Notes under the pieces: model-generated
What the model saw: the letters and a program-made list of their open reading frames with translations, nothing else
Databases searched by the model: none
Told to the model about the DNA's origin: nothing
Assembly: GCF_036507355.1 (NCBI RefSeq)
Contig: NZ_AP027877.1
Strand: one strand, 5' to 3'
From: Escherichia coli
GTDB taxonomy: Bacteria; Pseudomonadota; Gammaproteobacteria; Enterobacterales; Enterobacteriaceae
Length of the DNA: 64,000 bases
Shown here: positions 59,413 through 64,000 of the stretch, piece after piece
How positions within the stretch are numbered: position 1 is the first letter of the stretch
Layout of the letters: each line of letters begins with the position of its first letter
Translations under genes and position numbers: made by a program

Positions 59413-59500
59413 CTTGAAACGTTTCAGCGCGATCTTGTCTTTAACCCTAAGCCAGGTTGGCGCTTTTTTTCTCATAGAAGCTGAATCGTTTCAATTCAGC
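59413..59500 (+). promoter_or_regulatory. fruB control region with two Cra/FruR-type operators: CTTGAAACGTTTCAGCG (59413-59429) and GCTGAATCGTTTCAATTCAGC (59480-59500)
   Basis: Palindromic TGAAWCGTTTCA cores read directly; second site lies in the leader 15 bp upstream of the fruB ATG. Confidence 0.7.
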
Positions 59501-61599: not shown

Positions 61600-63291
61600 A
61601 TGAAAACGCTGCTGATTATTGACGCTAATCTCGGTCAGGCACGCGCCTATATGGCGAAGACCCTGCTGGGCGCGGCGGCGCGAAAAGCAAAACTGGAAAT
61701 CATCGACAATCCGAACGACGCAGAAATGGCGATTGTTCTCGGTGATTCCATCCCGAATGACAGCGCGCTGAACGGTAAAAATGTCTGGCTGGGCGATATT
61801 TCCCGGGCAGTTGCGCACCCTGAGCTGTTCCTGAGTGAAGCCAAAGGCCATGCGAAACCTTACACTGCGCCGGTCGCTGCGACAGCACCGGTTGCCGCCA
61901 GCGGTCCGAAACGCGTAGTTGCGGTGACTGCTTGCCCGACTGGCGTAGCACACACCTTTATGGCGGCTGAAGCCATTGAAACCGAAGCGAAAAAACGTGG
62001 CTGGTGGGTGAAAGTTGAAACCCGTGGTTCTGTTGGTGCGGGTAATGCAATCACCCCCGAAGAAGTAGCCGCAGCGGATCTGGTGATTGTGGCGGCAGAT
62101 ATCGAAGTGGATCTGGCGAAATTTGCTGGTAAACCGATGTATCGTACCTCTACCGGTCTGGCGCTGAAGAAAACCGCGCAGGAACTGGATAAAGCGGTTG
62201 CTGAAGCAACGCCGTATGAACCGGCGGGCAAAGCTCAAACGGCGACCTCTGAAGGTAAGAAAGAGAGTGCAGGCGCATACCGTCACTTGCTGACGGGCGT
62301 CTCTTACATGCTGCCGATGGTCGTTGCAGGTGGTCTGTGTATCGCGCTTTCTTTTGCTTTTGGTATCGAAGCGTTTAAAGAGCCGGGTACGTTGGCAGCG
62401 GCGCTGATGCAGATTGGTGGTGGTTCAGCCTTTGCGCTGATGGTGCCGGTACTGGCAGGTTACATTGCCTTCTCCATTGCCGATCGTCCGGGTCTCACGC
62501 CGGGTCTGATTGGCGGTATGCTGGCGGTCAGCACCGGTTCTGGCTTCATTGGCGGTATTATTGCGGGCTTCCTGGCTGGTTACATTGCGAAGTTAATCAG
62601 TACGCAACTGAAACTGCCACAGAGTATGGAGGCGCTGAAACCGATCCTGATCATTCCGCTAATTTCCAGTCTGGTGGTCGGTCTGGCGATGATCTACCTG
62701 ATCGGTAAACCGGTTGCTGGCATTCTCGAAGGGTTGACTCACTGGCTGCAGACCATGGGGACTGCGAATGCGGTTCTGCTGGGGGCGATCCTCGGTGGCA
62801 TGATGTGTACTGACATGGGCGGTCCGGTAAATAAAGCAGCGTACGCATTCGGTGTGGGTCTGCTGAGTACTCAAACCTATGGCCCGATGGCGGCGATTAT
62901 GGCGGCAGGTATGGTGCCACCGCTGGCAATGGGTCTGGCAACAATGGTGGCGCGTCGCAAATTCGACAAAGCGCAGCAGGAAGGTGGCAAAGCCGCTCTG
63001 GTTCTTGGTCTGTGCTTTATTTCGGAAGGTGCAATTCCGTTTGCTGCTCGTGATCCGATGCGTGTGCTGCCGTGCTGTATCGTGGGTGGGGCGCTGACTG
63101 GCGCAATCTCAATGGCGATTGGTGCGAAACTGATGGCACCGCACGGTGGTCTGTTTGTTCTGCTGATCCCTGGCGCTATTACGCCGGTACTGGGTTACCT
63201 GGTAGCAATTATTGCCGGTACGCTGGTGGCGGGTTTGGCCTATGCCTTCCTGAAACGTCCGGAAGTGGACGCAGTAGCGAAAGCCGCGTAA
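61600..63291 (+). CDS. fruA: fructose PTS IIB'BC component FruA (563 aa)
   Basis: ORF track; duplicated IIB domains with CPTG, then IIC membrane domain. Confidence 0.93.
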   Translation: MKTLLIIDANLGQARAYMAKTLLGAAARKAKLEIIDNPNDAEMAIVLGDSIPNDSALNGKNVWLGDISRAVAHPELFLSEAKGHAKPYTAPVAATAPVAASGPKRVVAVTACPTGVAHTFMAAEAIETEAKKRGWWVKVETRGSVGAGNAITPEEVAAADLVIVAADIEVDLAKFAGKPMYRTSTGLALKKTAQELDKAVAEATPYEPAGKAQTATSEGKKESAGAYRHLLTGVSYMLPMVVAGGLCIALSFAFGIEAFKEPGTLAAALMQIGGGSAFALMVPVLAGYIAFSIADRPGLTPGLIGGMLAVSTGSGFIGGIIAGFLAGYIAKLISTQLKLPQSMEALKPILIIPLISSLVVGLAMIYLIGKPVAGILEGLTHWLQTMGTANAVLLGAILGGMMCTDMGGPVNKAAYAFGVGLLSTQTYGPMAAIMAAGMVPPLAMGLATMVARRKFDKAQQEGGKAALVLGLCFISEGAIPFAARDPMRVLPCCIVGGALTGAISMAIGAKLMAPHGGLFVLLIPGAITPVLGYLVAIIAGTLVAGLAYAFLKRPEVDAVAKAA

Positions 63292-63447
63292 TAAAAGGTG
63301 TGTTACAGGGCAGAATTTTACTGCCCTGTATCATTGGATGAGCGCAAAGAGAATGACCGGTTTGTGAATGTAATTTTATGAATTTAAATGGTTTTATCTT
63401 TCAGTAGAAACCTGAAACGTTCATCAAACACTAAGGTTATTTCCTCA

Positions 63448-63475
63448 AGGGCAGATTCTTTTCTGCCCTTTTTTA
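63448..63475 (+). terminator. rho-independent terminator after fruA (AAGGGCAG-ATTCTTTT-CTGCCCTT then TTTTT)
   Basis: Direct reading; preceded by a second hairpin with the same GGGCAG/CTGCCC core at 63306-63328. Confidence 0.75.
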
Positions 63476-63714
63476 GTGTTCATGTTCTGTGCATCCCGTC
63501 ACAAATTCCTCGCTTTTGTAATTCTGGCATTTAATCGCATTTTGTGAGCCTGCTCAAATCTGCCCGCTTTGCCTCTCTGGCGGCAATTTACTTTACGTAA
63601 AACATGCATACTATGAGCACATGTTTAAATATGAACACATGTTTAAACTGTCTTTGCAGTATCTATATTCTTGTGGATTGACAGGGTTGGTAATTTTTTA
63701 CCAGAGGACGTGCT

Positions 63715-64000
63715 ATGCGCGAAAAGGATTATGTCGTAATTATAGGCTCGGCGAATATTGATGTCGCCGGATATTCACATGAATCATTAAATTATGCGGA
63801 TTCAAATCCAGGTAAAATAAAATTTACGCCTGGTGGGGTAGGGCGCAATATTGCACAAAACCTGGCGTTGCTGGGTAATAAAGCCTGGCTACTGAGCGCC
63901 GTAGGCAGTGATTTTTATGGCCAATCGCTGCTAACGCAAACCAATCAATCTGGCGTTTATGTCGATAAATGCCTGATTGTGCCGGGAGAAAATACGTCGA
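63715..64000 (+). CDS. psuK: pseudouridine kinase PsuK (YeiC), 3' end cut by window edge
   Basis: ATG at 63715; translation MREKDYVVIIGSANIDVAGY... with PfkB-family GG motif (TPGGVGRN). Confidence 0.85.
   Translation, partial: MREKDYVVIIGSANIDVAGYSHESLNYADSNPGKIKFTPGGVGRNIAQNLALLGNKAWLLSAVGSDFYGQSLLTQTNQSGVYVDKCLIVPGENTS

Follow-up and report, generated by a model that had tools for sequence, protein, structure and literature searches.

The 3′ untranslated region (UTR) of the Escherichia coli operon fruBKA contains two hairpins built on the same stem. We consider it fairly probable that they are paralogous copies of an ancestral fruA terminator, of which the downstream copy (hp2) terminates transcription and the upstream copy (hp1) is a selected stem-loop without a U-tract, most likely serving as a barrier to exonucleases. 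The pair lies at the end of the 64 kb E. coli stretch analysed here (the window), where setB on the minus strand is followed by fruB, fruK, fruA and psuK on the plus strand. In the annotation of a RefSeq sequence that is 100% identical to this part, fruA and psuK are the only genes named here, one on either side of the hairpins. The fruA stop codon is located at 63289-63291, within the tandem stops TAATAA, hp1 starts 15 nt past it, and the ATG of psuK is at 63716 (Table 1).

Table 1. Features of the fruA 3′ region, in positions of the window
Feature	Position	Strand	Basis
fruA, PTS fructose IIBC, last gene of fruBKA	61600..63291	+	ORF list; RefSeq annotation of 100% identical sequence
hp1, 8-bp core stem CAGGGCAG/CTGCCCTG, 7-nt loop (AATTTTA), no U-tract	63306..63328	+	sequence, fold, conservation
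spacer, 118 nt, AT-rich (A38 C17 G22 T41), Escherichia-specific, single copy	63329..63446	+	copy counts, homology searches, composition
hp2, 9-bp stem AAGGGCAGA/TCTGCCCTT, 6-nt loop (TTCTTT), T-run 63469-63474	63447..63474	+	terminator scan, fold, flank orthology

An earlier note on this DNA had described two hairpins after fruA with a common GGGCAG/CTGCCC core, and both were found in the sequence. Their separation, given there as about 120 bp, measures 118 nt, and the two near-identical palindromic sites stand 141 bp apart. The first hairpin is, as the note had it, followed by no T-run; the second is indeed a hairpin with a T-run, although its placement at 63448-63475 was 1 nt too high, the hairpin occupying 63447-63470 and the T-run continuing to 63474. 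On both strands of the window the pattern AGGGCAG-N(4-10)-CTGCCCT occurs twice (63307 and 63448), compared to 0.00 expected from 100 shuffles, and the pair is not due to chance. The bare 7-mer AGGGCAG was observed 12 times versus 6.3 expected, and four of these 12 occurrences are arms of hp1 and hp2. When folding was compared with that of shuffled sequences, hp1 reached -19.7 kcal/mol (z -5.6) and hp2 -15.5 kcal/mol (z -5.2), and the stem of hp1 is predicted to be extendable to 63300-63334. Searching Rfam returned nothing at the gathering threshold, the best match being DapZ with 22.8 bits versus 56.

The downstream hairpin hp2 is probably the intrinsic terminator of fruBKA. A consensus scan of the fruA-psuK interval, in which five or more T among 8 nt served as the simple criterion for a terminator, gave hp2 as its only strong terminator-like match, and hp1 fell below the terminator call of the scan. 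With nine pairs, five of them G-C, a loop of 6 nt and TTTT immediately after, hp2 possesses both the stem-loop and the U-tract of an intrinsic terminator, and it is positioned as one, being located and conserved after the last gene of the operon. Among 11 Escherichia sequences, its stem is variable in only one of 18 columns and its T-run in none. The complete curated table of Term-seq 3′ ends has no fruA entry (Adams et al., 2021; PMC7815308), probably owing to poor expression of the operon without fructose, and the TERMITe and SMRT-Cappable-seq supplementary data likewise hold no fruA entry. Literature text searches for fruA together with sRNA/UTR/Hfq, RIL-seq or terminator yielded nothing relevant.

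Comparison of 80 fruA loci from Enterobacteriaceae places the two hairpins in an evolutionary order. Thirty-five loci from outside Escherichia carry one GGCAG...CTGCC hairpin with a U-tract, 17-46 nt past the fruA stop, and a related second copy was found in none of them (0/35). This single hairpin, typically AGGGCAGAGATTTCTCTGCCC followed by 6-8 T, is the lone fruA terminator of Citrobacter, Klebsiella, some Enterobacter and others. The distance from the fruA stop to the psuK motif is 316-358 nt outside Escherichia, where psuK follows, versus 443-455 nt within Escherichia. The 240 nt past hp2 align with the post-terminator sequence of C. amalonaticus, C. sedlakii and E. soli (z 15.7-20.7, 0/500 shuffles) and more weakly with that of K. 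oxytoca (z 4.2, 1/500 shuffles), and the 8 nt located 5′ of hp2 (TTTCCTCA) are found identically before the C. sedlakii terminator. Given that both flanks of hp2 match those of the single terminator, hp2 can be regarded as the orthologue of the ancestral fruA terminator. Together with its near-invariant stem and T-run and its standing as the only strong match of the scan, this orthology of the 3′ flank supports the earlier note, which took the second hairpin for the real terminator of the two. On the other side of hp2, the 118 nt of the spacer have no match in the post-terminator sequence of those genera (z about 0). hp1 and the spacer make up ~140 nt of extra sequence known only from Escherichia (E. 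coli, E. albertii, E. whittamii and two further species), and hp1 is placed directly past the end of fruA, where the single terminator of other genera sits. Since this extra sequence is confined to one genus, the terminator hairpin would have been duplicated there, and the simplest description of the locus, as read from these alignments, is a duplicated terminator hairpin with new sequence between the copies.

Several further resemblances in these loci were considered and rejected. Klebsiella indica (L066) has a second GGCAG...CTGCC hairpin, which is without the GGGCAG core, adjoins nfo and is unrelated. The sequence ATCTGCCCGCTTT at 63556-63570 resembles a third half-copy, but its counterpart in Citrobacter alignments is ATCTGGCGGCTTTT, which makes it part of the sequence upstream of psuK, and the resemblance is a coincidence. 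Blocks of TGTAATT..ATTTAA..TTTT are found 3′ of both hairpins, as in a tandem duplication of a unit of ~141-148 nt; however, the local alignment between the spacer and the post-hp2 sequence scores 16 versus a shuffle mean of 15.6, and 450 of 1000 shuffles reach it. Insertion of a MITE or IS with target-site duplication was likewise discarded, the spacer being single copy and not found at other sites, and the repeated unit of ~22-30 nt lying far above usual target duplications. Seven other loci, from Lelliottia, Enterobacter and relatives (L017, L018, L029, L033, L035, L039 and L063), have a convergent gene after fruA instead of psuK. In place of the GGGCAG terminator, the first ~90 nt past their stop contain a REP-like palindrome (TGTCGGGTGGCG...CCCGACC) and then a different terminator (AAAAGCCGGGT...ACCCGGCTTTTTTT), which would be another version of a “guard hairpin” followed by a terminator.

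E. coli itself carries the arrangement in two forms. In around 1,200 of 5,426 complete E. coli genomes (~22%), the match to the window breaks off at 63264, with 27 nt still to go to the fruA stop, and these genomes (e.g., L001), together with E. albertii, carry a deeply diverged downstream allele. This second haplotype is 98% identical to the window in the body of fruA, 67% in the intergenic sequence past hp2 and 80% in the first 285 nt of psuK, where K-12 is 98% identical. Right past the stop it has a U-less hairpin, ATCATCGGGGCTGAG-ACAT-CTCTGCCCCGATGAT, whose stem is followed by GACAAACGC with no U; then come a spacer, AGGGCAGAAACATCTCTGCCC and TTTTT. The spacer in this haplotype is a BIME consisting of two inverted REPs around TGCAATATATTGAATTT, found at 40 or more places per genome; strain ATCC 11775 contains a 100% match to this BIME sequence and is a candidate carrier of the haplotype. 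The fact that a guard hairpin, a structured insert and a terminator have been kept despite such divergence argues that the arrangement is useful. The window-type spacer was also considered as a decayed BIME and rejected, since it has no significant similarity to the BIME-bearing one (846/1000 shuffles). The split between haplotypes runs from 63264 through psuK (L001 4365-5132), with FruA C-termini EVDAVAKAA versus ETQIVEKNA, and the minority haplotype is ~95% identical to E. albertii, which suggests that recombination took place long ago with a breakpoint in the last nucleotides of fruA.

In the three alleles folded, hp1 is predicted to be stabler than hp2: against about -15 kcal/mol for hp2, it reaches -19.7 kcal/mol in the window, -21.3 kcal/mol in K-12 and -29.5 kcal/mol in the second haplotype, and its z score across alleles ranges from -5.6 to -8.2. 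The added stability comes from flanking pairs that differ by haplotype, one having GUUA/UAAC and the other AUCAUC/GAUGAU. When window-type sequences of four diverged lineages (11 Escherichia sequences) were compared, the stems showed a mean pairwise difference of 0.125 (hp1) and 0.028 (hp2), compared with 0.357 for the loop of hp1 and 0.272 for the spacer, the loops lying at 0.25-0.36. One pair of hp1 has changed from A-U to C-G by a compensatory change (columns 17/41), and five one-sided stem changes, carried by K-12, L006, L004 and L092 in hp1 and by L007 in hp2, all produce G·U on the plus strand and A·C on the opposite strand. If both outcomes are equally likely, five of five has a probability of ~0.03, counted over few independent lineages, and as a signal of selection this polarity is suggestive only. 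The distance between the half-sites is itself variable, with a loop of 7 nt in hp1, 6 nt in hp2 and 4 nt in other genera. Taken together, the pattern of conservation, the compensatory change, the wobble polarity and the variable loops argue for selection on RNA structure of the fruA transcript, and not on a DNA operator or on a minus-strand RNA. The compensatory evidence consists of a single pair and five wobbles, drawn from a small number of independent lineages, and the conservation of the hp1 stem could partly reflect slow evolution of any GC-rich palindrome.

Directly after hp1 the window has TATCATTGG, K-12 has TAACATTTG and the second haplotype has GATGATGAC, none of which forms the U-tract of an intrinsic terminator. 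Without a U-tract, and in the second haplotype without any U after it, hp1 is not a canonical terminator. The earlier note had suggested that the first hairpin may be a degenerate copy. The word “copy” holds, in that a fruA hairpin conserved throughout Enterobacteriaceae has been doubled only in Escherichia; “degenerate” does not, in view of the higher stability of hp1, its conserved stem, its compensatory change and its otherwise exclusively G·U wobbles. As far as the alignments can tell, hp1 appears to be a maintained, even reinforced copy, and it is conserved across Escherichia, conservation being, next to the mapping of 3′ ends, one of the two points on which the note had made its interpretation depend. 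The interpretation of the note is thus largely borne out, to be corrected in the word “degenerate” and in the origin of the pair, which would lie in a duplication of the conserved enterobacterial fruA terminator within Escherichia.

With a median of 1 place per E. coli genome, the window-type spacer is single copy and is thus unlike the REP/BIME family, whose members are imperfect palindromes of ~35 nt in high copy number. It has no match in the phage collection, and the five records that it matches in the plasmid collection are all from E. coli and very large, measuring 0.37 to 4.9 Mb, mostly chromosome-sized. The exact 10-mer CCTGAAACGT is present both at 63249, in the 3′ coding end of fruA, and at 63411 in the spacer; comparison of the spacer with the fruA coding end gave 24/1000 for the 10-mer alone, 25-195/200 against 82 fruA ends, and 10-516/1000 for collinear chaining with the hairpin, results that are borderline or negative and make no relationship between the two detectable. 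The spacer is predicted to fold as a closed domain with a long helix between 63348-63361 and 63430-63445. In the predicted helix 60-73/142-157 three pairs have changed on both sides; this covariation is modest, and the 11 sequences used to test the structure are also those from which it was built. Two blocks, TTTGATGA and TCATCAAA, are invariant within a spacer that is otherwise 27% diverged, and they are complementary to each other. With 14% C and 19% G (C 17 and G 22 of 118), the spacer is neither C-rich nor G-poor and is unlike a rut site, and for that reason the Rho-dependent scenario usual with U-less protective hairpins is not evident here.

The interval has some additional features. At 63412-63424 on the plus strand of the spacer, CTGAAACGTTCAT fits STGAAWCSNTHHW, which we take to be the operator consensus of Cra/FruR. 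This pattern has three matches in the 64 kb window versus 1.05 expected, the other two (59415-59427 and 59481-59493) lying just upstream of fruB, presumably where the known Cra operators are expected. The spacer site is not conserved, K-12 having CTTCAAACG and other Escherichia species differing as well, and it is probably fortuitous. In some RefSeq genomes, a hypothetical protein of 48 aa (WP_001300063.1) is annotated across the spacer and hp2, at L003 985-1131 on the minus strand, corresponding to ~63384-63530 of the window, and an ORF of 48 aa on the plus strand of the window (63388-63534) runs through the terminator hp2; both look like annotation noise. In Escherichia sp. MOD1-EC7003 (L005 2089-2215), a deletion fuses the spacer, ~124 nt past the fruA stop, to codon 41 of psuG, by which hp2, psuK and the start of psuG are gone and the fruBKA terminator is lost, and hp1 is kept. 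In one genome, L094 (NZ_AP045812.1), an IS1 lies between hp2 and psuK, ~290-1060 nt past the fruA stop, and the hairpin segment is spared. Further downstream, psuK is preceded at 63612-63647 by two tandem units of 18 nt (TATGAGCACATGTTTAAA / TATGAACACATGTTTAAA) that contain ACATGT palindromes. Citrobacter, Enterobacter and Klebsiella have related sequence, and the repeat may be a putative operator for a regulator of psuKGT. At ~63543-63558, also upstream of psuK, TGTGAGCCTGCTCAAA (TGTGA-N6-TCAAA; TGTGATTCTGTTCATA in Citrobacter) resembles a CRP site and is a candidate for one.

A plausible scenario for the present arrangement would begin with the conserved intrinsic terminator of fruA, AGGGCAGAG-loop-CTCTGCCCT with a U-tract, to which the Escherichia lineage would have added ~140 nt comprising one more copy of the hairpin and the spacer. 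hp2, having retained the U-tract and the ancestral 3′ flank, would, judging from sequence and orthology, terminate fruBKA ahead of the psuK promoter region. On hp1, located right past the stop codon and U-less, selection would have acted to keep an RNA stem-loop in the fruA transcript. After a cut within the AU-rich spacer, or after exonucleases have nibbled back through the weaker hp2, the fruBKA mRNA would be left ending at the very stable hp1, which would form a barrier to 3′-to-5′ exonucleases. Such a function as an RNA stability element, the other option of the earlier note, is the most likely role of hp1, although with hp2 at a distance of only 118 nt there may seem to be little need for another protective hairpin.

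It is unlikely that hp1 is instead a functionless relic, left behind when an insertion or duplication parted the old terminator from its U-tract and yet to decay. The missing U-tract fits such a leftover, the spacer has no recognisable function or homologue, and the loss of hp2 and psuK by deletion in L005 suggests that the region tolerates rearrangement. However, a decaying hairpin would not be expected to be stabler than the working terminator, to have gained additional flanking pairs that are not the same in both haplotypes, or to persist over a haplotype split with 20% divergence in psuK; its stem is conserved, with loop and spacer at 0.27-0.36 pairwise difference, and its changes are compensatory or G·U only. 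We regard it as quite unlikely that the two hairpins are tandem terminators, with hp1 acting as a weak non-canonical terminator or pause site and hp2 catching the read-through. The stem of hp1 is very stable, and the sequences after the extended stem, AUUUGAU in the K-12 type and UAUCAUU in the window, are both partly U-rich; nevertheless hp1 fails the T criterion of the scan, and in the second haplotype its stem is followed by no U, so that any terminator activity is not a conserved property of hp1. Release of the spacer and hp2 as a 3′-UTR-derived small RNA acting in trans via Hfq, with hp1 as the end of the upstream fragment, seems very unlikely. The U-tailed terminator at the 3′ end, the AU-rich body, the covariation in the predicted spacer fold (three two-sided changes) and the invariant blocks would all suit a small RNA, but there is no Rfam match and no mention was found in the literature searches. 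Moreover, E. albertii and ~22% of E. coli genomes have an unrelated BIME in place of the spacer, so that no conserved seed could be species-wide, and the mutual complementarity of the blocks suggests internal structure rather than a free seed. To the broader idea of a processed regulatory module, in which a duplication-born fruA 3′ UTR kept in two haplotypes would give rise to a 3′-UTR-derived RNA on fruBKA induction or would control psu read-through by competition between hairpins, we accord a very slim chance.

Two rivals depend on the symmetry of the four arms. In an attenuator-like switch, the pairings 1:2 and 3:4 would alternate with 2:3, so that an opened hp1 would free its 3′ arm to pair with the 5′ arm of hp2 and allow read-through into psuKGT, which we consider highly improbable. 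The 3′ arm of hp1 is complementary to the 5′ arm of hp2 over 7 nt, and the 5′ arm of hp1 to the 3′ arm of hp2 over 9 nt; this cross-complementarity exists because the two stems are copies. The long-range pairing is, however, 13.3 kcal/mol worse (-50.0 vs -63.3), hp1 forms first and is strengthened by flank pairs absent from hp2, and the terminating ribosome, halted by tandem stops 15 nt upstream of the core stem, should not reach the stem. In addition, psuK has its own conserved upstream region, no leader peptide, ligand or protein was identified as a sensor, and we know of no link between fructose uptake and pseudouridine catabolism, which also counts against a switch. The remaining proposal, in which a dimeric protein would bind the inverted repeats as operators in the DNA and RNA structure would play no part, is scarcely credible. 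It would account for two near-identical palindromic sites, but the distance between half-sites varies (7, 6 and 4 nt), the one-sided changes preserve G·U pairing on the plus strand and would break the symmetry of the DNA, and hp2 is followed by a T-run and is represented by an obvious terminator in other genera.

With hp1 read as a selected stem-loop and hp2 as the terminator, the locus offers a clean and datable case of growth of a bacterial 3′ UTR, in which a terminator hairpin was duplicated in one genus; one copy would have retained the U-tract and termination, and the other, having lost the U-tract and gained stem pairs, has apparently been kept as an RNA structure. For annotators, the end of the fruBKA transcript is probably located ~180 nt past the stop codon and not at the first hairpin. 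The natural pair of E. coli alleles, with an AT-rich and a BIME spacer, respectively, could be compared for fruBKA mRNA stability. The element is of an ordinary kind with a neat evolutionary history, and it neither opens nor settles a major question.

Among known systems, the closest to hp2 is the conserved fruA terminator of Enterobacteriaceae (AGGGCAGAGATTTCTCTGCCC with U6-8), with which it shares a GC-rich stem, here of 9 bp, the U-tract, the position and orthologous flanks. It differs in lying ~155 nt past the stop in Escherichia versus ~20 nt elsewhere, and in having lost the ancestral upper stem (GAG/CTC), resulting in a larger loop. Tandem terminators, of which rrnB T1-T2 is an example, are similar to the pair in that serial hairpins end an operon; unlike them, hp1 and hp2 are copies of each other and only the second has a U-tract. 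REP/BIME elements are a class of mRNA 3′ stabilisers located between the stop codon and the terminator, and hp1 shares both this location in the 3′ UTR and the presumed role, whereas neither the two hairpins nor the window-type spacer are related to REP in sequence, all three being single copy. As for the proposed function of hp1, stable U-less stem-loops are known to shield the 3′ ends of E. coli transcripts from PNPase and RNase II (Dar and Sorek, 2018; PMC6061677). hp1 has the same structural characteristics, namely a stable stem-loop directly after the gene with no U-rich stretch next to it. The stem-loops of that study, however, belong to Rho-terminated transcripts with rut sites just downstream, whereas hp1 is followed by an intrinsic terminator 118 nt further on.
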